A stretch of 32,000 nucleotides of DNA from an uncultured bacterium (GCA_963704705.1 OY969931.1:1200001-1232000), one strand, 5' to 3'. Counted from the first letter of the stretch, positions 83 to 8,920 are shown. Translations and numbers: made by a program. The notes: generated by a model not told the origin, from the sequence alone.

Positions 83-225
83 GCATAACAGCGAACTATC
101 CGGTTCGGGCTTTTTTGATGCGCGGCTTTGCGGGGCAAAAGCCTTCACCCAACTTTTTTTAATGGTGGCGCTGACGCGCTATTATACCACCGTAAAAAAG
201 TTCGTATAGTTTGCGCCCGTTATGT
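83..225 (+). repeat. attC site 1 (143 bp)
   Basis: R'' is GCATAAC (83-89) and R' is GTTATGT (219-225). Terminal stem GCGAACTAT (91-99) pairs with ATAGTTTGC (206-214). Inner arm is GGTGG..hairpin..ATTATACCACC (181-191). Confidence 0.85.
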
Positions 226-258
226 GACATCCATTTTTTCTCATTGTAGAATAACGAC

Positions 259-828
259 ATGGAAAAAGAACCAATTACACCGATTGAAATAGTAAAAGCA
301 GATATTAAACTTTTTGAAAAATATCAAAAAGAAATTTTGGAAATCGAAAGAGAACTTATCGAAAATAGTTCATCAGCATATCTTATTGATGAACAAGATG
401 AGCTCGATTTTATGTTAGATGCGTTTAAAAAAGGAGGTTATGCTTATTTAGTAATGGAAAATGAAAAAGTTACTGGGTTTTTAGTTGTTGGGCCACTCGA
501 TGATGGGACTGAATTGCCTGAAACAGTTACTCAAAATTATCCAATTGCAAATTGCCTTCATATCAAAGTAATGTACATAAAAAATACAAGCAAAGGAATT
601 GGTAGTGAAATGATGGAAAAATTAATTCAAGAACTAGATAAAGAACAATGGAAATATTTATTTGTAAGAACTTGGATTGATCCACCAAATGAAGGAGCTA
701 TTAATTTTTATACAAATCGAGCTGGCTTTGAAGCTGTTCCAAATGCAATAGTTGAATCAACAAAAAGAAAATTGGATGGAAGTGGAACACTCCAAATAAA
801 AAGACAATATTTTTCAAAAAGGATATAG
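259..828 (+). CDS. GNAT-family N-acetyltransferase (cassette gene)
   Basis: 189 aa. Acetyl-CoA motif A-like SKGIGSEMMEKLI and C-terminal NEGAINFYTNRAGFE are typical of GNAT folds. ATG lies 34 nt after attC1. Confidence 0.8.
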   Translation: MEKEPITPIEIVKADIKLFEKYQKEILEIERELIENSSSAYLIDEQDELDFMLDAFKKGGYAYLVMENEKVTGFLVVGPLDDGTELPETVTQNYPIANCLHIKVMYIKNTSKGIGSEMMEKLIQELDKEQWKYLFVRTWIDPPNEGAINFYTNRAGFEAVPNAIVESTKRKLDGSGTLQIKRQYFSKRI

Positions 829-842
829 AAAAAATGGACATC

Positions 843-999
843 ACATAACAGGCGCATTAACGGTTCGGGTTTTTTTTGTCGGGCGGCCTAAAAGCACGCC
901 CAAAAATCCCTCACCCAACTTTTTTAACGGTGGTGACATGCCTTGCGGCATGTTATTATGCCACCGTCAAAAAGTTCGCTAATGCGCCGGACGTTAGCG
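843..999 (+). repeat. attC site 2 (157 bp)
   Basis: R'' is ACATAAC (843-849) and R' is GTTAGCG (993-999). Stem GGCGCATTA (851-859) pairs with TAATGCGCC (980-988). Near-identical to attC6. Confidence 0.85.
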
Positions 1000-1063
1000 G
1001 AAATTGGGCTGATTTTAAAAGCGACTTAATATATAATTCAAATAATTCTTAACCTAAAATTCT

Positions 1064-1642
1064 ATGAATCAAACATGGAAAATCATTGTCGCCGTCATTA
1101 TTACAGCAGTCGTTGTCGGAGGTGGCTTTTACTTCTGGCAACAGAGCAAGGAAGAAACTCCACAAGTTACTCGAAAAACCGAAGATCAAACACCAGCTCC
1201 AGCAGCTGAAACCGAAAAAACGTTCACTGGTAGCGGATTTACATTCACATACCCCGTAGAATATACAGCTGATAACAAAGGACTTTGGACAACGGACGGT
1301 TATCAAAGACATATAAATCCGCCTGAAGCTTGCGATACCTGCCAGATACCAGAAGTAGAAGTAAAAGCCACCACTTCAAATAAAACATTGGATCAACAAA
1401 TTATTGCTGATTATGACTTGCCAGGAACAACACTGGCAGAGATGTCTAAACAAACTGGCATCAAATATGAGCAAATAAAAATCGGCGACAATGATTTTAT
1501 CAAAATCACGGTTAGCGACATGTTCGATGTAACAGGATATTACACAAAACATAATAATCAGATTGTCGCTTTTAAAGTTTATTTGACGGAAAAAGATAAT
1601 AAGGCATTAAAAGATATTATTTCGACATTGAAGTTTAATTAA
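1064..1642 (+). CDS. Hypothetical membrane-anchored protein (cassette gene)
   Basis: 192 aa with an N-terminal TM helix (WKIIVAVIITAVVVGGGFYFW) followed by a soluble domain. No family recognised. Confidence 0.7.
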   Translation: MNQTWKIIVAVIITAVVVGGGFYFWQQSKEETPQVTRKTEDQTPAPAAETEKTFTGSGFTFTYPVEYTADNKGLWTTDGYQRHINPPEACDTCQIPEVEVKATTSNKTLDQQIIADYDLPGTTLAEMSKQTGIKYEQIKIGDNDFIKITVSDMFDVTGYYTKHNNQIVAFKVYLTEKDNKALKDIISTLKFN

Positions 1643-1657
1643 AATCAGCCCAACATC

Positions 1658-1775
1658 AGATAACAAAGGCTATGCGGCTACGATCCTTTCAGTCGCTACG
1701 CCCATATTGTGCGGTGGTGGCCCTTCGCGGCCAATTATACCACCGCACAACATCGCATAGCCTTGGCCGTTAAAT
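1658..1775 (+). repeat. attC site 3 (118 bp)
   Basis: R'' is AGATAAC (1658-1664) and R' is GTTAAAT (1769-1775). Stem AAGGCTATGCG (1666-1676) pairs with CGCATAGCCTT (1754-1764). Inner arm is GGTGG-GGCCcttcgcGGCC-AATTATACCACC. Confidence 0.8.
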
Positions 1776-1877
1776 GAAATTGATTATATTTATGTCGTAT
1801 GATAAATTTTGCTCCTTTAACAAATAAAGCATGAATAAAGTTTTGCATTTAAACATTGAAACATCTGAACCAGGTAA

Positions 1878-2090
1878 ATGGTTAGATATATTACATGTCT
1901 AAGATTAATGCATCTCGATGGCGTTGATACTATGGCCGATGATGGCAATACAAAAGCAGTTTTAGCAGTTTGTTTAGAAAAAGGAGCTGAAGTAAAAAGT
2001 GCTATTCAAAGGCATGGATTAACAATTACTGACGAATGTGAGAAAGGATTTTACAGCACCTCTAGAATTAAGATGATCAACTTCATTTAA
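1878..2090 (+). CDS. Hypothetical small protein (cassette gene, start uncertain)
   Basis: 70-codon ORF whose TAA lies inside the R'' of attC4. An overlapping 23-codon ORF (1831-1902) in another frame makes the true start, or a frameshift, unclear. Confidence 0.3.
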   Translation: MVRYITCLRLMHLDGVDTMADDGNTKAVLAVCLEKGAEVKSAIQRHGLTITDECEKGFYSTSRIKMINFI

Positions 2091-2185
2091 GAGGCGTATA
2101 TTCAGTTCCGCTCCTTCGTCGCTCCACCCAAATTTACATTTCGCTATGCTCAATGTAAACTTTGTATATACACCAGACGTTAAAT
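2085..2185 (+). repeat. attC site 4 (101 bp, short variant, R'' mutated to AAG)
   Basis: R'' is ATTTAAG (2085-2091) and R' is GTTAAAT (2179-2185). Stem GGCGTATAT (2093-2101) pairs with ATATACACC (2166-2174). Lacks the GGTGG/ATTATACCACC arm. Confidence 0.7.
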
Positions 2186-2312
2186 GCAATTTATTTTTTA
2201 TCCTCCCTGTTTTCTAAAGACTTTTTCTTCTTGACTTGTTGAAATATAATTACCGGCATGAAAAACAACCGGTCCAAAAACTGCAAAAAATCCAGCAGTT
2301 TCTTTATCGTTA

Positions 2313-2624
2313 TTATAAATAGAAACCAAAACACATTAAACCTATAGTTAGTATAAAAGCTAACCACATACCTATACTTTCATTTCTTGTATTTGATCTA
2401 ATAATTATATTTTCTAAACTTTGTCTATGATTAGATTGCTTTTCGGCCATTGTAATTATTCTATCGGCTGCTCCAGGAATAATTTTTTCATATCCTTCTA
2501 GAATATTTGGGGGGGGTAATGGCCCAGAAAAAGAAGTTGCTACAGCTGTAAATCTTTTTTCTATCCTTTGGCTTGGTTTATTTTGCAGTTTTTGAGTACT
2601 GCTTTTCTTCTTCTTTTTGTTCAT
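2313..2624 (-). CDS. DUF2335-like membrane protein (inverted cassette gene)
   Basis: 103 aa. SGPLPPPNILEGYEKIIPGAADRIITMAEKQSNHRQ matches my memory of the DUF2335 signature. A C-terminal TM helix is present. Overlaps the upstream ORF by 47 nt. Confidence 0.6.
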   Translation of the reverse strand: MNKKKKKSSTQKLQNKPSQRIEKRFTAVATSFSGPLPPPNILEGYEKIIPGAADRIITMAEKQSNHRQSLENIIIRSNTRNESIGMWLAFILTIGLMCFGFYL

Positions 2625-2808
2625 AATTATCTATTGAAATATAAATTGCATTTCCAACATTATCCCAATCATTTTTTAAGGCAAAATAATCTGCATCCTC
2701 CTGATAGCAGTATTCGTCTAATTTACCATATAAATCAATAACCCTACTTGCACCCTTAAAAAATGTTGGTGAAGTGCATAATTTAGTAGTTTTTAATTCG
2801 TCATTCAT
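2578..2808 (-). CDS. Hypothetical small protein, first gene of an inverted two-gene cassette
   Basis: 76 aa ORF with ATG 28 nt downstream of an extended -10 promoter. No family confidently recognised. Confidence 0.5.
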   Translation of the reverse strand: MNDELKTTKLCTSPTFFKGASRVIDLYGKLDEYCYQEDADYFALKNDWDNVGNAIYISIDNYEQKEEEKQYSKTAK

Positions 2809-2835
2809 AATAAATATTTAGTCGGTCGGATTAAA

Positions 2836-2864
2836 ATTATAACAAAATATTTTTTAATCAACAA
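2836..2864 (-). promoter_or_regulatory. Sigma70-type promoter for the inverted cassette operon
   Basis: On the minus strand: TTGTTG (2864-2859), 17 nt spacer, then TGT-TATAAT (2844-2836). This is an extended -10. Confidence 0.5.
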
Positions 2865-2892
2865 TCCAATTAATAAATCAAAAATAAACTTC

Positions 2893-3025
2893 ATTTAACA
2901 GGTGTATGTTCGGCTCCACTCGCTATGCTCGTTTCGCCCATATTTGCCTTGTTCGCTTTGGCGGTGATAAAATTATACCGCCACGCTCACGGCGGCAAAC
3001 ATCGCACATACACCGGCCGTTGTAT
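2893..3025 (+). repeat. attC site 5 (133 bp)
   Basis: R'' is ATTTAAC (2893-2899) and R' is GTTGTAT (3019-3025). Stem GGTGTATGT (2901-2909) pairs with ACATACACC (3006-3014). Near-identical to attC11. Confidence 0.85.
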
Positions 3026-3108
3026 GCCATCGGATAGGGGGATTTTGTTAATTTAGCCCTTTACTTTTCTTGTAAAATATAGCAGAATAGCATCCTTTGA
3101 ATCCATTT

Positions 3109-3755
3109 ATGCCAGAAAACAAAATACTTCTTACAGGATTTGAGCCATTCGGCCCTTATCGCTACAACGTAGCTGAACAGCTAGTTGAAGCGCTAAATGG
3201 TGAAATAATTGATGTACGGCAGAACACACGCCTGCAAATAATTGGCGTAAGCTTGCCAATTAACTTTGGTACTTTTAGAAAAATTCTCGAAGCAGCAATT
3301 GAAAGCACTAAACCAAAAATAGCATTAGGATTAGGAATGGATTTTAAAGACCACGATCATCTCTCGTTAGAATTAGCTGCTCATTCAATTCCAAATTACT
3401 GCAATGATATTCAAGATACTGAATGTAATATTGGACCAAATGGCTCCTAGATAGTTTGCCAGAAACAATAAGAATTCCTAATGAAGAACACATAAAAAGT
3501 GCCATTTCTGCTATTAATGGAATTGAGTTTTCTGAAGATGCAGGGCGGCATATGTGCGAAACTGTGCTAAGAGATCTTATAAGAATGAGTGAAGGTGGCA
3601 AAAAATTTCAACCGGGTTTTATACATTTGCCGCATACAGCTGATCTTCTATCAGATTCAGTACATTTAGATAAACATGAGAAATCAATGTCAATCGAGCA
3701 GCAAATAGCAATAGTAAAAAAAGTAATAAAAAGTATTGGCACTTTTTATTTATAA
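3109..3755 (+). pseudogene. pcp: Pyroglutamyl-peptidase I (peptidase C15) family gene, frameshifted
   Basis: The N-terminal part (ILLTGFEPFG.., LELAAHS) ends at TAG 3448-3450. The C-terminal part (..SEDAGRHMCETVLRDLI.., FIHLPH) continues in another frame that is open from 3429. The Pcp-like motifs are split across the two frames. Confidence 0.7.
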
Positions 3756-3781
3756 CAAAATCCCTTTTTCAATCCAACAGC

Positions 3782-3934
3782 ATACAACAGGCGCATTAAC
3801 GGTTCGGGCTTTTTTGACGGCTGGCTTCGCACAGCCAAAAATCCCTCACCCAACTTTTTTAACGGTGGTTTCACGCCTTGCGGCATGTTATTATACCACC
3901 GTCAAAAAGTTCGCTAATGCGCCGGACGTTAGGC
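3782..3934 (+). repeat. attC site 6 (153 bp)
   Basis: R'' is ATACAAC (3782-3788) and R' is GTTAGGC (3928-3934, perfect GTTRRRY). Stem GGCGCATTA (3790-3798) pairs with TAATGCGCC (3915-3923). Confidence 0.85.
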
Positions 3935-3956
3935 GGCATCTCTTAATCAATCTATT

Positions 3957-4253
3957 ATGAAATTATATACAAAAATATTGTTAGCATTATTTATTGGAAT
4001 AGTTCTCACCTTACTTTCAATATCATATAAATCATCTTATGAATTTCATGTACTTGAATACAGTAGTTATGAAACACGACCTTCCTGGGGATTCCCTTTG
4101 CAGTATGTATACGATAATGATGTTAGCTCACCAGTAATGTCAATGAATGAAGAAGATACATTCATTTTTACATATATGATTGGGGATGTATTAATTTACT
4201 CATTTTTGGCTTTCATACCATTTTTAATATTTAAAAAAAGAGACACCGCCTAA
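3957..4253 (+). CDS. Hypothetical two-TM membrane protein (cassette gene)
   Basis: 98 aa with hydrophobic N- and C-terminal segments. The stop TAA is embedded in the R'' GCCTAAC of attC7. Confidence 0.6.
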   Translation: MKLYTKILLALFIGIVLTLLSISYKSSYEFHVLEYSSYETRPSWGFPLQYVYDNDVSSPVMSMNEEDTFIFTYMIGDVLIYSFLAFIPFLIFKKRDTA

Positions 4254-4365
4254 CAGCAAACTATCCGGTTCTGCTCCTTGCAGTCGCTACACCCAACTTT
4301 GCCAGTGGTGGCGCTTCGCGCTATTATACCACTGTCAAAGTTCGTATAGTTTGCGGACGTTAGGT
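4248..4365 (+). repeat. attC site 7 (118 bp)
   Basis: R'' is GCCTAAC (4248-4254, perfect RYYYAAC) and R' is GTTAGGT (4359-4365, perfect GTTRRRY). Stem GCAAACTAT (4256-4264) pairs with ATAGTTTGC (4346-4354). Confidence 0.9.
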
Positions 4366-4373
4366 GGCATAAT

Positions 4374-4411
4374 ATAAAAAAAGACCCACTTTTGGATAAG
4401 CAGGTCTTTTT
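4374..4411 (-). terminator. Possible intrinsic terminator of the inverted lipoprotein gene
   Basis: AAAAAGACC (4378-4386) pairs with GGTCTTTTT (4403-4411) around a 16 nt loop. The minus-strand transcript ends in a U-run. The stem is weak, with only 4 GC pairs. Confidence 0.4.
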
Positions 4412-4426
4412 AGTAAACTTAAATAA

Positions 4427-5037
4427 TTAAAATTCGTAAGTAACCGTTTCTTTCTGTTTATCGCCATCGGTCACCGATAAAAGCATTGTTCCGTGTTCAG
4501 ATTTATATAATTTTTTATAATGCTGCTTAACTGTAGCTAAACCTATTTTTAGTTCATCTTTAATAAACATTTCGCATGTAATAGCCTCTGGATCTGTATC
4601 ATTCACAATCAAAATCGTAGCTTGAACCGGAGCAGATTCCATAAAAATTGCAGGCCAATAAGCTAAGAAATTTTCATTACCACAACCTGTGTAACCAACT
4701 TTTACTGTTATTGTATCTCCTTCAATAGTCACCCAATTGCCACAAGTTTCATTGCCGATAGAAAATGATCCTTTTTTGAGATCTTCAAATGATTTATCAC
4801 TTCCTAAAGGATAAGCACATCACTTACAGCAACTGGCTCCGATGGCGACATATCCTTCGGTTCCACAACGGTTGGTTCCTCAGACACATCTATCATTATA
4901 TCTGAATCTTCTGGTTGCGTGTCAGTAGTTGAAACTGTTGGTTGTTGTTCTTCCTGAACCGGCTGAAACCAAGAACAGCCAGAGAGTGTTACTGTAGCAA
5001 TTGATAATAAAGCTACAAGCGTAATTACTTTTTTCAT
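4427..5037 (-). pseudogene. Lipoprotein gene, apparently frameshifted (inverted cassette gene)
   Basis: ORF 5037-4804 encodes a lipoprotein signal (LSGC|SWF) plus an acidic linker and stops at 4804. The second ORF's frame is open from about 4800 and reads coding-like (..GSDKSFEDLKKGSFSIGNETCGNWVTIEGD..) with no ATG before GTG 4732. This suggests a single gene broken near 4800. Confidence 0.5.
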
Positions 5038-5130
5038 AAGTGTATATGGTTAAAGTTACTTATTTAATAACAACCTTAGATAACAATAACACATTTTTTA
5101 TAAAAAGTTGCGATATTTTTATATTGCGCC

Positions 5131-5278
5131 ACCTAACAGGCGTATATCCAGTTCCGCTCCTTTCACTCGCTCCACCCAAATTAGCCTTTCCTCATTCCGG
5201 TGGTTTCACGTCTGACGACGTGATATTATACCACCGTCACTCGTCAGGCTAACTTTGTATATACGCCGGACGTTGTAA
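5131..5278 (+). repeat. attC site 8 (148 bp)
   Basis: R'' is ACCTAAC (5131-5137) and R' is GTTGTAA (5272-5278). Stem GGCGTATAT (5139-5147) pairs with ATATACGCC (5259-5267). Inner arm is GGTGG-TTTCACGTCtgacGACGTGA-TATTATACCACC. Confidence 0.85.
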
Positions 5279-5296
5279 GAAATTTTTAAATTATTC

Positions 5297-5814
5297 ATGA
5301 AAAAAGACAATTTTATTGAAAAATTACCGTTAGTAAAATTCTCAACTTATTCTGAAATTCAAAAACAATATGTGTTAGATTTTGGTGAGAACATTATTAA
5401 GTTAATGAAAAATTTTTCTCCAACACAAGTAGATGGCAATAATTTCTTAAAAGCATGCAGGCATATTTGGTTCTGGGAACTTGGAGCATATGAAGTAGTC
5501 CAACAATTGACGTTGAAGGTTGTTTTGATGATAAAACCAAGACAAAAATAAATGCACTTAAAATAAATCTCGCAAAGCTGAGAATGCCATTCGCAAAACA
5601 AGAACTTAGAGGAGAGAAGAAAAGAAAATTCGTGGAAACAGAACCTTCAGTTACTTCATTTGCAGAGGGGGATATAGGCTTTACTATAAAAGGAGAAAAA
5701 TTTTACTTTAAACCACTCTATAATGAGTTTAAAAGAGTAATTGGTGGTATCAAACCAAAAAATATAAATGCAAAGATTGAGAACCAAAAGGAAAAAAGTA
5801 AAAAACAAAATTAA
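5297..5814 (+). pseudogene. Hypothetical cassette gene split by a frameshift
   Basis: ORF 5297-5551 and ORF 5584-5814 overlap as open frames. The second frame is open from 5494 (SSPTIDVEGCFDDKTKTKINALKINLAKLRMPFAKQ..). This fits one roughly 170-codon gene with a frameshift around 5494-5520. Confidence 0.5.
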
Positions 5815-5824
5815 AAAAAACTTC

Positions 5825-6246
5825 TTACAACAGCGGGCTAGCCGGTTCGCTCACTAAAATTATTATTTTTTAAAATCTATATTATGAACAATATCTTAAT
5901 AATCATCCTGATCATTGTTAATATCTTTCTTTTATTTGCAATTCTCAGGATTCACAAACAACTAAAATGGATAAAGAAAACATATGACAGAAACTTTAAA
6001 CTAGCTCACGGAATATTGAATACCATAAACAAAAAAACAAAAGCTGATGAAAAATTGATATTACAAAAAAATGGGGCAATGAGGTTCTGGAGTCCTGATG
6101 AATATCAAGAAACTGTTGAAAGAATAGAGGATGTTAAAGAAATTCTTGAAAAATCGATCGAAAAGGATAAAAAATAATAATTTTTACGCTCGCTTACCCA
6201 AGTTGTCACAACTGTAACAACTTCGTCTAGCCCGCGACCGTTGTAC
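5825..6246 (+). repeat. attC site 9, composite (422 bp), with a 330 bp ORF-bearing insert inside its first internal arm
   Basis: R'' is TTACAAC (5825-5831) and R' is GTTGTAC (6240-6246). Stem GCGGGCTAG (5833-5841) pairs with CTAGCCCGC (6227-6235). The 5' arm CCGGTTCGCTCAC and the 3' part ACGCTCGCTTACCCAAG.. are separated by positions 5855-6185. A perfect 16 bp inverted repeat bounds the insert: 5856-5871 AAAATTATTATTTTTT and 6169-6184 AAAAAATAATAATTTT. Confidence 0.6.
5884..6177 (+). CDS. Hypothetical N-terminally anchored small protein nested inside attC9
   Basis: 97 aa with an N-terminal TM helix (ILIIILIIVNIFLLFAIL) and a charged helical tail. The double stop TAATAA lies within the right arm of the 16 bp inverted repeat. 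Confidence 0.5.
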   Translation: MNNILIIILIIVNIFLLFAILRIHKQLKWIKKTYDRNFKLAHGILNTINKKTKADEKLILQKNGAMRFWSPDEYQETVERIEDVKEILEKSIEKDKK

Positions 6247-6360
6247 GAAAAATACTTCCCGGCTTATTTCTGAAATCCATAACTTTTAATGCAAGTAAAC
6301 AAATTGGATTTTCTTTTTTTGATAGAGGGGAGCTTCCTGCCTTTGGCAGGAAGTAATGAA

Positions 6361-6396
6361 AAATAAATATAAAATGGCTCGCCTTACGGCGAGCCA
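6361..6396 (-). terminator. Intrinsic terminator downstream of the inverted DUF4256 gene
   Basis: TGGCTCGCC (6375-6383), loop TTAC, GGCGAGCCA (6388-6396). The minus-strand transcript continues UUUUAUAUUUAUUU. Confidence 0.5.
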
Positions 6397-6425
6397 AAGA
6401 AAAATAAAGTTCAAAAACCAATTTT

Positions 6426-6842
6426 TTAGACCCTTAGCCAGCCGTGGAAGCCCCTATCGTCATAAGGATAGTTCGGAGGGTTCCCAGACACGGTGACACC
6501 ACCGTGATCACGAAACGCAGCGAGCGCAACCTTTTTGTTTCTTGTTTCTTCCGGGGTATCAACCCATGACCATGAGTCACTAAATAAGCCTTTAACAAGC
6601 CTAGCAAGTTTCTCAATTTGCTTTTCGTTTAAAAGACCTCCAAGACCCATATCTTTTTTCGCCATATCAACCGCGTTACCTTTTGGGTTATATCCTTGCC
6701 TTTCAGCTATTTCCTGTCCTTTACGGTCATAACAAACCATTCTTCGTCCTTTAGGGCTTTCTTTTGAACAATCCCAGAATTCATATTCTCCCGTTTCTTC
6801 AACAAATTCCACTACATCAGGTTCACCGCCGGTTCTTTCCAT
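6426..6842 (-). CDS. DUF4256 family protein (inverted cassette gene), 5' end apparently disrupted
   Basis: MERTGGEPDVV..ESPKGRR..CYD..RGFHGWLRV matches my memory of DUF4256. The frame stays open upstream to 6949 (VPLKARFEANLKRHKDIEWSRVEARLKEAAPEKLWSLNE) without a start codon. Confidence 0.7.
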   Translation of the reverse strand: MERTGGEPDVVEFVEETGEYEFWDCSKESPKGRRMVCYDRKGQEIAERQGYNPKGNAVDMAKKDMGLGGLLNEKQIEKLARLVKGLFSDSWSWVDTPEETRNKKVALAAFRDHGGVTVSGNPPNYPYDDRGFHGWLRV

Positions 6843-6949
6843 TTCATTGAGTGACCATAGTTTTTCAGGAGCTGCTTCTTTAAGTCTTGCTTCAACTCGT
6901 GACCATTCAATATCTTTGTGGCGTTTTAAGTTTGCTTCAAAACGAGCTT

Positions 6950-7294
6950 TTAATGGTACTTAAAAGCTGTTCTGTTTGTTCGGGTAATTAAAGTGCGTTC
7001 AGGCTTTTCAACTTCCTCTTTTTCTTTTTTCTCAACTTGCAATTCATTATTATCATCATCTGTTGAATTACCTCTCTGTTCCAATAATAATGCATTAACT
7101 GCAGCCCTAACGGTTGGGTCATCAGGGAGCGGATCTACTCCCATTTTTGCATTTTCGATCATAAGTTCAAGTTTCAACCTATCTTCCGGATCCAGATGCC
7201 CTAAATCCATTACTTCTTCATACCCCAACTCTGTTGCCATATAATCATTATATGCATCTTCGTTATTCACTGGTTTTGGTGTAGATTCATTCAT
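6950..7294 (-). CDS. Hypothetical acidic protein (inverted cassette gene)
   Basis: 114 aa starting from ATG 7294 (MNESTPKP..). The longer TTG start at 7354 coincides with the -35 box of its own promoter. Confidence 0.5.
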   Translation of the reverse strand: MNESTPKPVNNEDAYNDYMATELGYEEVMDLGHLDPEDRLKLELMIENAKMGVDPLPDDPTVRAAVNALLLEQRGNSTDDDNNELQVEKKEKEEVEKPERTLITRTNRTAFKYH

Positions 7295-7325
7295 TTTATA
7301 AGTGTTACTTATAACAAGGTTTTTA

Positions 7326-7354
7326 ATTCTAACTATATTTCGGCAAATTGTCAA
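7326..7354 (-). promoter_or_regulatory. Sigma70-type promoter of the inverted cassette operon
   Basis: On the minus strand: TTGACA (7354-7349), 17 nt spacer, TAGAAT (7331-7326). It lies about 32 nt upstream of ATG 7294. Confidence 0.6.
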
Positions 7355-7512
7355 GTATAAATTATTATGGTCTTATATACAAACATTTTATGGTGTTTTG
7401 GCTCGCAAAATTTACCCCTTTTATTCCCCTCTTTTACTCGCCAAAACTAATCCAATTTGTATTTCCAGATAATAATAAGGCATTTAAAAGAAAAATCGGG
7501 AAAGTATTCATC

Positions 7513-7654
7513 GTACAACAGCTGACTATGCGGTGAGGGCTTTTTTTCGTGCGGCTAAAGCACGCATCAAAGCCCTCACCCAACTTTGACCGTGGTGAGC
7601 ACTTCGTGCTAATTTTACCACGGTCAAAGTTCGCATAGTCAGCGGACGTTGTAT
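7513..7654 (+). repeat. attC site 10 (142 bp)
   Basis: R'' is GTACAAC (7513-7519) and R' is GTTGTAT (7648-7654). A 12 bp perfect stem GCTGACTATGCG (7521-7532) pairs with CGCATAGTCAGC (7632-7643). Arms: GTGAGGGCTTT..AAAGCCCTCAC, and CTTTGACCGTGGT-GAGCACttcgGTGCT-AATTTT-ACCACGGTCAAAG. Confidence 0.9.
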
Positions 7655-7723
7655 TTAACCTTCTTGAGATTGACCTTTTTGTATTTTTATGTTATTGTTT
7701 AAATAGATATTTAAATTTAAATT

Positions 7724-8311
7724 ATGGCAGATTCATCAATTGATAAAGGATCACAAGGACAACCTCAGTCACCTGATCGTACTCCAAATTGGAATGATAT
7801 TGAACAATGGATTGCAGGTTTGTCTGGAGAACAAAAACAGAAAGTTAAAGATTTATTAGCAGAAACAGAAGTTAATAAACCTACTGAAAGCCCTATAGAC
7901 TTAGATAAACCTTCTACAGTTTATAGTAGAGTTCAAATTATTCTATCTGAGGCTGGATTTACTAATATTAGTTTTACAGAAACAGGTTTAACAGGTTATT
8001 ACGGTCCTGAAAACGATTTAAGTAGAAAGTGTATATTTAATATGAGTTTTCATAAAAATACAAAAATAACCAGTACTAATACCAATCTAGGTGTAATAAA
8101 CTGTTCATTTGTTGTTGCAAGAGCAGTACATGGTACTCATCGAAACTGGACTATATATTTTGATAATGAAAAAACTTTAAAAGAACAATTATCAACTTTA
8201 GCATCCGATCTTCGAGATACTGCCAAAAAAGATATTACATTTGAAGAAATTGAAGAAGATATTCATTCAAAAATATCAATGAAAAATGCTGAATTATTGG
8301 GACAAAATTAA
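7724..8311 (+). CDS. Hypothetical protein (cassette gene)
   Basis: 195 aa ORF with ATG 70 nt after attC10. No family recognised. Confidence 0.65.
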   Translation: MADSSIDKGSQGQPQSPDRTPNWNDIEQWIAGLSGEQKQKVKDLLAETEVNKPTESPIDLDKPSTVYSRVQIILSEAGFTNISFTETGLTGYYGPENDLSRKCIFNMSFHKNTKITSTNTNLGVINCSFVVARAVHGTHRNWTIYFDNEKTLKEQLSTLASDLRDTAKKDITFEEIEEDIHSKISMKNAELLGQN

Positions 8312-8318
8312 TAATTTC

Positions 8319-8463
8319 AAATACAACAACGCCTAACAGGTGTATGTTCGGCTACACTCGCTTTGCTCGTTTCGCCCATATTTGTTTTGTTTGTTTAGGT
8401 GGTGATAAAATTATACCGCCACGCTCACGGCGGCAAACATCGCACATACACCGGACGTTGGCC
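8319..8463 (+). repeat. attC site 11 (133 bp core plus an extra upstream R''-like box)
   Basis: The proximal R'' is GCCTAAC (8331-8337). The distal AAATACAAC (8319-8327) is the box complementary to this cassette's start. R' is GTTGGCC (8457-8463). Stem GGTGTATGT (8339-8347) pairs with ACATACACC (8444-8452). Confidence 0.85.
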
Positions 8464-8511
8464 GAAATATTTTGTGGTATAATATGTTTGATATTCTTTA
8501 AATTATAAACT

Positions 8512-8853
8512 ATGCCGTTTCTCTACTTCCCGATCATTCTACTGATCATCGAATTCCTTATTATCATGCCAATCCCGCTCTTTGTAGCAGGCAGGTTGAT
8601 GAAATTACCAATAAAATATACTGAAGCTTTATGGATTACTTTATTCGCTGGTATTATTGGATCACTTGCCTCAATGGCACATATCTTAGTGGGTTTAGCT
8701 GTGTTTTTAGGAATTCTTTATTATGAGTTGAATAATAAGTTTCATCCTAAACCAATAAAGATTATTTTAATAATTCTTATAGATCTTGCTGTAGTTATTG
8801 GAATAGAGTTTCTAAAACCTTATTTATTATATGGTGGACTCTCACTAATGTAG
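8512..8853 (+). CDS. Hypothetical polytopic membrane protein (last cassette)
   Basis: 113 aa, almost entirely hydrophobic segments. Confidence 0.6.
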   Translation: MPFLYFPIILLIIEFLIIMPIPLFVAGRLMKLPIKYTEALWITLFAGIIGSLASMAHILVGLAVFLGILYYELNNKFHPKPIKIILIILIDLAVVIGIEFLKPYLLYGGLSLM

Positions 8854-8865
8854 TTGAAATACTTC

Positions 8866-8920
8866 GGCCAACAGGCGTATATACTGTTCCGCTACTCTCC
8901 ATGTAAACTCTGTTTATTTA
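8866..8920 (+). repeat. attC site 12, degenerate terminal remnant
   Basis: R'' is GGCCAAC (8866-8872), followed by AGGCGTATATACTGTTCCGCTACTCTC..CATGTAAACTCTG, which aligns to attC4 and attC8. The middle is deleted, the 3' stem has decayed, and there is no GTT core. Confidence 0.5.

Follow-up and report, generated by a model that had tools for sequence, protein, structure and literature searches.

The window analysed here, 32,000 nt from the genome of an uncultured, tiny-genome (CPR) bacterium, covers the final third of an array of 34 attC sites and 33 cassettes (genome 1183977–1208457). The sites are all co-oriented, one per cassette, 90–414 bp long and of fixed geometry, forming imperfect palindromes with RYYYAAC and GTTRRRY at their ends. 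When the genome was searched with a geometric pattern (AAC-N-9mer...9mer-NNNN-GTT, scored by L pairing), 37 matches fell in three adjacent 10-kb bins, and no other bin held more than three. The features between positions 83 and 8910 are collected in Table 1; judged by its sequence, the truncated attC at 8866–8910 marks the end of the array.

Table 1. Sites and complementary cassette ends in the part of the array covered by the window (positions counted from the first nucleotide of the window)
Feature	Position	Strand	Details
attC	83..225	+	R'' box 83–89, R' box 219–225; geometric finder, 8/9 L pairing; tail from 220 onward is part of the next cassette
Start arm, cassette 219–993	219..241	+	Pairs with 827–849, 21/23, mismatches only at positions 10–11; gene: GNAT acetyltransferase (Pfam PF00583)
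End arm and R'', cassette 219–993	827..849	+	
attC	843..999	+	9/9 L pairing; MFE fold: R helix, one-sided bulge of 3 nt, L helix of 12 bp, followed by a branch
Start arm, cassette 993–1769 (PsbP-like)	993..1018	+	22/26 with 1639–1664, 15 consecutive pairs past hinge
End arm and R'', cassette 993–1769	1639..1664	+	
attC	1658..1775	+	Geometric finder
Start arm, cassette 1769–2179	1769..1793	+	Pairs with 2067–2091
End arm and variant R'', cassette 1769–2179	2067..2091	+	AAG (not AAC) at 2089–2091
attC	2085..2185	+	Geometric finder
Start arm, cassette 2179–3019	2179..2201	+	Pairs with 2877–2899, 20/23; genes on minus strand, DUF2335 (Pfam)
End arm and R'', cassette 2179–3019	2877..2899	+	
attC	2893..3025	+	Geometric finder
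Start arm, cassette 3019–3928 (split pyroglutamyl peptidase)	3019..3037	+	15/19 with 3770–3788
End arm and R'', cassette 3019–3928	3770..3788	+	
attC	3782..3934	+	Geometric finder
Start arm, cassette 3928–4359	3928..3944	+	Pairs with 4238–4254, 15/17
End arm and R'', cassette 3928–4359	4238..4254	+	
attC	4248..4365	+	Geometric finder
Start arm, cassette 4359–5272	4359..4382	+	Pairs with 5114–5137, 21/24
End arm and R'', cassette 4359–5272	5114..5137	+	
attC	5131..5278	+	Geometric finder
Start arm, cassette 5272–6240	5272..5287	+	Pairs with 5816–5831, 15/16
End arm and R'', cassette 5272–6240	5816..5831	+	
attC, 414 bp	5825..6246	+	9/9 L pairing across 414 bp; variable part holds a 97-codon ORF (5884–6177)
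Start arm, cassette 6240–7648 (split DUF4256, minus strand)	6240..6260	+	18/21 with 7499–7519
End arm and R'', cassette 6240–7648	7499..7519	+	
attC	7513..7654	+	Geometric finder
Start, cassette 7648–8457	7648..7656	+	9/9 with 8319–8327 only; usual G at position 8 absent
Tandem R'', cassette 7648–8457	8319..8337	+	8319–8327 matches start; 8331–8337 in attC register
attC	8331..8463	+	Geometric finder
Start arm, last cassette	8457..8472	+	Pairs with 8857–8872, 15/16
End arm and R'', last cassette	8857..8872	+	
attC remnant, left arm only	8866..8910	+	Resembles left arm of attC at 5131, then stops

A tyrosine recombinase gene (genome 1182395–1183213, minus strand) adjoins the array and is divergent from the cassettes; the first cassette begins at L001 position 2153, ∼100 nt upstream of the gene. 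At attI, conservation with a related genome extends up to GTT and gives way to divergence after it. A co-oriented array next to a divergent tyrosine recombinase gene and attI is the layout of classical and sedentary chromosomal integrons, and the boundaries of the attC palindromes (59-base elements) and the G|TT crossover are likewise those of class 1 and chromosomal integrons. The best family for the 273-aa recombinase is NCBIfam NF040815, and the protein and Pyrococcus XerA align over their full lengths (4A8E, E = 7.6e-43). Against the integron integrase model TIGR02249 it reaches 185.5 bits (cut-off 265), the match being split into two stretches with model positions 183–237 left out, and its alignment with VchIntIA (2A3V) skips residues ∼213–242. 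By these alignments the local recombinase resembles XerA and, in contrast to integron integrases, has no IntI-specific insert. A second Xer-like gene is present elsewhere in the same genome. Xer proteins act on a single double-stranded dif site to resolve chromosome dimers, whereas the local protein sits beside 34 folded sites. Because the recombinase falls below the TIGR02249 cut-off, a standard integron finder would probably call the array a CALIN, that is, a cluster of attC sites without an integron integrase as defined by IntegronFinder. Unlike CALINs, however, the array is not orphaned, since an intact XerA-like gene and a conserved attI occupy the places of intI and attI.

The G|TT crossover logic is textbook knowledge established since the early 1990s: the R' tail of a site is part of the cassette downstream and can pair with the R'' of that cassette, a rule for which later papers (PMC3518468, PMC2727003) cite Hall et al. 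1991 and Stokes et al. 1997. The initial annotation had proposed that the local units are discrete mobile cassettes with a crossover at GTT, and five paralogous pairs lying behind different attC sites bear this out, their identity starting and stopping inside the conserved (A/C)GTT, with breakpoint resolution bounded by the conserved ACGTT. One such copy, 99% identical to cassette 993–1769, is the first cassette, immediately behind attI, and there too identity is lost within the conserved bases at GTT. The different positions of the paired copies in the array lend indirect support to cassette mobility through the recombinase.

Complementarity between the two ends of each cassette had been reported at 11 junctions of the window, and recomputation returned it at every one (12/14, 20/24, 12/14, 8/8, 9/9, 14/16, 15/17, 12/13, 9/9, 9/9, and 10/10, in array order). 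Most pairs extend past the ends first noted, as in cassettes 219–993, 993–1769, and 2179–3019 (Table 1), because the earlier reading halted at a systematic 2-nt mismatch at positions 10–11. At one of the 11 junctions, the partner of the cassette start at 7648 sits 10 nt upstream of the R'' expected from attC geometry (AAC at 8335–8337), so this junction uses a displaced or tandem R''.

The cognate-end rule holds over the whole 34-site array. Cassette starts agree with the reverse complement of their own R'' ends at 76–90% across positions 4–9 and 12–19, compared with ∼30% at the same positions for non-cognate and same-site pairs. Across positions 12–20, 21 of 33 cognate pairs but only 3.2% of 1078 non-cognate pairs reach at least 7/9. 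The R' tail of a site was also said generally not to match the R'' of that same site beyond AAC/GTT, and indeed same-site agreement is at the non-cognate level (1.71 vs 1.73 of 4 at positions 4–7, against 3.42 for cognate ends; 3.26 vs 3.09 of 9 at positions 12–20). The shuffled-pairing control gave a summed score of 213 observed against 106.5 ± 9.6 (20 000 permutations, maximum 146). Chance and AT-rich composition are ruled out as the source of the pairing by the shuffle controls on the 33 cassettes.

The two ends form a stem of three segments. The first is a 9-bp R helix, made up of GTT, four variable pairs, the conserved G8, and one further variable pair. A conserved 2-nt hinge occupies positions 10–11, and beyond it lies a cassette-specific outer helix, usually of 8–15 bp and in one cassette of at least 16 bp. 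Among 36 unique cassettes from five genomes, position 11 is a bottom-strand G.T wobble in 28 and a top-strand mismatch (A.C) in 31, and no strand bias was seen at stem positions other than the hinge. Position 10 is heterogeneous (Watson–Crick in 14, G.T in 7, and mismatched in 15). Three cassettes carry extra arms of 22, 17, and 42 nt inserted at the hinge. Allowing such insertions raises the background, with only 13 of 33 cassettes then exceeding the 99th percentile, and the ungapped per-position test was preferred for this reason. The stem is not merely imperfect but built with a conserved hinge at positions 10–11.

The same end-pairing pattern occurs in a same-genus SAG, in another genus of the family, and in two other Patescibacteria families. 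We sampled 20 regions beside homologous recombinases, which added few cassettes, most contigs stopping 0.1–3 kb from the gene. A search for compensatory changes in orthologous cassettes of 60 relatives yielded homologues of 66–81% identity, mostly outside recognisable arrays or on short contigs, and the start of the sole clear orthologue (G807) is rearranged. The cognate rule is also present in 13 arrays beside bona fide IntI genes (88 cassettes, with three arrays dominating and sites located by our own heuristic finder), but there pairing stops at 9–12 nt and is at background level from position 13, whereas local pairing resumes past the hinge to reach ∼19–26 nt. Positions 13–20 score 5.56/8 locally and 1.85/8 in the IntI-linked cassettes (Mann–Whitney p = 2e-7). 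The earlier proposal of pairing longer than the canonical R box therefore stands, and local R''/R' complementarity, unlike that of canonical sites, is not confined to the 7-bp box. Local and canonical cassettes alike were delimited by an all-combinations search validated by a perfect core at positions 4–9; a gapped hairpin finder with a non-overlap filter chose inner AAC...GTT pairs within local attC sites and gave three validated cassettes.

An extended R stem in the excised circular form, as the initial annotation suggested, agrees with minimum free energy (MFE) predictions for naked DNA, in which the bottom strand of the joined attC averages −42.9 kcal/mol, compared with −32.2 for the site as it stands in the array and −33.1 when its tail is non-cognate. 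The bottom strand is predicted to be more stable than the top by 4.5 kcal/mol when joined and by 2.3 in the array. Classical attC sites have an unpaired central spacer on both sides and extrahelical bases in the L box region; for the local sites the MFE folds predict, in 25 of 33, a spacer reduced to a one-sided bulge of 3 nt and an L helix of 9–12 bp free of single-base bulges, with a branched apex. Rfam returned no significant family, with a single sub-threshold match.

We consider it probable, if far from certain, that the cassette ends are split halves of an attC basal stem, kept long because it stabilises the bottom-strand fold and bearing a hinge that marks the strand. Each complementary end would be one half of the stem at the base of the attC hairpin belonging to that cassette; when integration occurs at G|TT, this stem is cut, so the 3' half ends up at the 5' end of the linear cassette. 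A long stem may have been retained because it stabilises the recombinogenic bottom-strand fold once the ends are joined, and perhaps also when the whole cassette is single-stranded in the array, where the zipped ends would place the TT tail at the point that strand exchange must join. The hinge could mark the bottom strand by showing G.T there and A.C on the top.

Classical attC sites mark the strand with bulged bases, which lie within the stem above the R box and are recognised through the insert of IntI (Bouvier et al. 2009, PMC2727003; PDB 2A3V). The local hinge resembles these marks in being a non-Watson–Crick feature that differs between strands and could signal the strand to a recombinase, but this candidate mark is a G.T/mismatch outside the R box, and the local XerA-like protein, which lacks the insert that reads extrahelical bases, may read the hinge instead. 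A stronger version, which we advance only tentatively and think doubtful as a whole, is that the hinged outer stem replaces the extrahelical-base code, that an insert-less Xer-type recombinase recognises the distortion outside the R box, and that cassettes arise by a templated process. Under this version, templated making through fold-back or a circular intermediate would follow from the presence in each cassette of both halves of a private 20–80-bp stem.

Unlikely, in our judgement, is a neutral relic, in which cassettes were born from a longer palindrome or fold-back synthesis and their outer complementarity is now functionless and slowly decaying. Such decay would fit an outer helix that ranges from 5 to at least 16 bp (one cassette's gapped alignment reaches ∼80 nt), is not clear in about a quarter of cassettes (2, 6, 21, and 32), and loses pairing gradually across positions 19–23 in the 33 cassettes; a templated origin also predicts cassette-specific sequence. 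All four pair types are present at positions 13–16, which favours the split-stem reading, but both halves copied from one template at birth would also covary, so covariation is no proof of selection. However, a perfect birth palindrome would pair at positions 10–11, where most cassettes in five genomes share the same non-complementary letters, which calls for selection or sequence recognition. Good stems also persist in cassettes with frameshifted genes (e.g. 4359/5137 and 6240/7519), and the architecture is maintained in distant Patescibacteria families.

We give still less credence to a mainly pre-synaptic role, instead of stabilisation of the free cassette, in which the ends zip in the single-stranded array and the junction with the product R helix favours precise excision of single cassettes. 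When bottom strands spanning attC(n−1), cassette, and attC(n) were folded for 28 cassettes, at least 12 of 20 cognate long-range pairs formed in 19 and local R pairs were 0 in nearly all, a result that also speaks for the split-stem reading; R helices predicted in array context are only ∼4–5 bp, which also favours such a role. Top strands, however, behave nearly equally (17 of 28), leaving the strand asymmetry unexplained, and pairing over 300–1000 nt in vivo would face SSB and kinetics; the case comes from MFE folds. We rejected as highly improbable a transposon-like reading, in which a transposase and not the tyrosine recombinase moves the cassettes as MITE- or IS-like units bounded by terminal inverted repeats: each unit does end in inverted repeats of 20–26 nt, but these are cassette-specific past 12 nt and offer no common transposase site, target-site duplications are absent, and the ends invariably border attC hairpins that share one orientation, within one array directly next to a divergent tyrosine recombinase gene and conserved attI.

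With the crossover logic already known, what is new in the split-stem reading is a variant, a stem about twice as long as in classical integrons, whose outer part is hinged and has a strand-specific wobble; we found no published account of attC stems extending past the 7-bp boxes or of integrons in CPR bacteria. Standard integron finders would overlook or mislabel such arrays, and with the cognate-end rule cassettes in CPR genomes can be delimited simply and without annotation. The array bears on how integron cassettes are made and on how a recombinase can recognise a folded single strand whose sequence is hardly conserved. It suggests a second way of recognising such a strand, with a base about twice as long, a position-specific, strand-asymmetric wobble, and a recombinase without the IntI domain, which has been regarded as indispensable for recognising attC. 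Both halves of a private outer stem must arise together, which limits models of cassette genesis; a templated origin, if it holds, would narrow further the ways in which cassettes can come about.

The genome carrying the window is a single 1.37-Mb contig with a 16S rRNA of bacterial type. In this contig, a geometric finder (pattern: AAC, 1 nt, a 9-mer, then its complement, 4 nt and GTT; the site finders used are heuristic) placed 34 co-oriented attC-like sites at genome positions 1183977-1208457, with no enrichment for such sites in the rest of the genome. The window contains the last eleven complete attC sites of this array plus a truncated one.

The initial annotation had described complementary cassette ends at eleven junctions. 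On recomputation, all eleven pairings were recovered at the same positions with the same scores (20/24 for the second pair), and in most of them the complementarity is longer than had been reported. At the junction at 7648-7656, the proposed partner at 8319-8327 is present, but the R'' in register with the site (AAC at 8335-8337) lies 10 nt further downstream. Across 33 cassettes, agreement between each cassette start and the reverse complement of the same cassette's R'' end (cognate pairs, counted from the G of GTT) was 79-94% at positions 4-9 and 64-85% at positions 12-19. Non-cognate pairs (start against another cassette's R'') and same-site pairs (R' tail against the R'' of the same attC) agreed at 38-50% at the variable positions among 4-9 and at 25-41% from position 13 on; the conserved position 8 agreed at 94% in all pair classes alike, and position 12, a conserved T, at 68% in non-cognate and same-site pairs. 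The summed cognate score over positions 12-20 was 213, compared with 106.5 ± 9.6 (maximum 146) in 20000 permutations of the 33 cassettes. In the same set, a random R'' was as good a match to a site's tail as the R'' of that site itself, in line with the annotation.

Imperfections are not spread evenly along the stem helix. Positions 1-9 are paired, with G8 nearly invariant, whereas positions 10-11, here called the hinge, are systematically non-complementary, reading A or C followed by A on the start arm and, on the same strand, CA on the end arm; beyond the conserved T12 comes a cassette-specific helix, with all four pair types found at positions 13-16. Five genomes gave 36 unique cassettes; the bottom-strand fold has a G.T wobble at position 11 in 28 of these, and the top-strand fold has a mismatch there in 31. 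Non-Watson-Crick cells at the other stem positions showed no strand bias. Three cassettes upstream of the window only seem to depart from this anatomy: their stems are shifted by 22, 17 and 42 nt of extra R''-side sequence at the hinge. In the last of them (42 nt), pairing picks up again over at least 16 bp, and gapped similarity extends to about 80 nt. One of these GC-rich inserts is itself a small hairpin, and two other CPR genomes (regions L074 and L076) have cassettes with similar GC-rich sequence ahead of R''. The end pattern, hinge included, recurs in a genome of the same genus, in a second genus of the family and in two more Patescibacteria families.

The integron crossover rule and heptanucleotide boxes are standard knowledge (PMC3518468, PMC2727003, PMC7439510), and our literature search found no description of stems beyond the boxes, nor of integrons in CPR bacteria. 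For a control, an integron-integrase model was run against 401 genomes of another phylum (84 with a hit above the curated cut-off), and the 20 kb beside twenty integron-integrase genes was analyzed with the same end-matching procedure as the local array. This yielded 13 arrays with 88 unique validated cassettes, a set dominated by three of the arrays, in which cognate pairing was 66-70% at positions 10-11, 53% at position 12 and at background from position 13, a profile indicating that classical stems reach 9-12 bp, slightly past the nominal 7-bp box. Over positions 13-20, canonical cassettes matched at 1.85 of 8 positions versus 5.56 of 8 locally (p = 2e-7). The local stems have about double the length of those in classical integrons, and the hinge interrupts them. 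In bona fide IntI-linked arrays of other genomes (L056, L063, L062), which are classical chromosomal integrons, cassette-specific complementarity regularly spans 9-12 nt, beyond the 7-bp box, and at some sites the GTT box is in tandem, with a 4-nt offset.

Five paralogous cassette pairs lie behind unrelated attC sites, and their identity begins and ends within the conserved ACGTT. The PsbP-like cassette at 993-1769 recurs as the first cassette behind attI, where it is preceded by GGGA, not GGAC, and identity again begins at GTT; attI itself is conserved with a related genome up to GTT and divergent beyond. Together, the paralogue breakpoints, the attI-proximal copy and the attI conservation locate the crossover at G|TT or immediately beside it, the position the annotation had proposed, and show that cassettes have moved. 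The two ends of a cassette together make up a single attC stem, which this crossover divides. The 99% identity of the attI-proximal copy suggests that the cassette was recently copied, or excised and reintegrated.

Features of the array and its surroundings (window coordinates unless marked as genome)
Feature	Position	Remarks
Tyrosine recombinase gene, 273-aa product	genome 1182395-1183213	strand opposite array; directly upstream of first cassette
attI-nearest cassette junction	genome about 1183285-1183335	L001 (region with local recombinase and attI) 2130-2180; 99% identical to cassette 993-1769
284-bp cassette, two copies	genome 1185947-1186231 and 1187985-1188269	upstream of window
GC-rich hinge inserts, 17-42 nt	genome 1190779, 1194410, 1197254	one in each of three cassettes, R'' side; upstream of window
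Variant R'' triplet, AAG instead of AAC	2089-2091	site otherwise normal
Four cassette genes, each split into two frames	3097-3755, 4427-5037, 5297-5814, 6426-7354	
attC, 414 bp	5825-6246	outer L pairing 9/9
Tandem R'' boxes, 10 nt apart	8319-8337	outer matches own cassette start; inner in register with attC
Truncated attC	8866-8910	array end

The 414-bp attC owes its length to a 97-codon ORF (5884-6177) inside the variable region, for which no Pfam match was found. The inner of the tandem R'' boxes would fit the commonest start type (GTTAGGCG), and the arrangement looks like a scar of attC replacement or fusion. The stem of the AAG-variant cassette is still 19/25 complementary. Stems are intact in the cassettes of the four frame-split genes (pyroglutamyl peptidase and DUF4256 among them), which are either decaying genes or homopolymer assembly errors. 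No ORF is present in the 284-bp cassette, whose boundaries are just 97 nt apart; its start occurs a third time at genome position 1185152, where it is fused to another cassette.

attC folding was predicted with ViennaRNA and DNA parameters, and the energies refer to naked DNA. Mean predicted bottom-strand energy was -42.9 kcal/mol for sites joined to their cassette's own start, compared with -32.2 kcal/mol in array context and -33.1 kcal/mol with non-cognate tails; the predicted bottom-over-top advantage was 4.5 kcal/mol in the joined form versus 2.3 in the array. In single-strand folds of whole cassettes together with both flanking sites, the long-range helix between cognate ends was predicted in 19 of 28, and local R helices almost never formed.

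The local recombinase can be aligned with archaeal XerA over its full length, falls below the integron-integrase cut-off and is without the IntI insert. Predicted local attC folds have a 3-nt bulge on one side, an L helix of 9-12 bp without interruption and a branched apex; they depart from classical sites in the region on which the missing protein domain would act. The recombinase has its closest named relatives in Candidatus Peribacteria and Patescibacteria assemblies, and 44 of the 401 Patescibacteria genomes sampled encode a homologue. Many assemblies from Patescibacteria have the array recombinase gene within 0.1-1.5 kb of a contig end (regions L078, L080, L081, L084-L086, L088 and L089); such arrays are probably under-represented in MAGs because repeated attC sites are likely to break assembly.

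The main rival explanation for the complementary ends is that cassettes were born by a templated process and that the ends are a relic of it, now in decay, but the hinge is non-complementary yet conserved, which speaks against a pure relic. We infer that the long stem and its hinge are functional: they may stabilise the bottom-strand fold, zip the cassette ends together, or mark the strand so that a recombinase lacking the IntI insert can recognise it.
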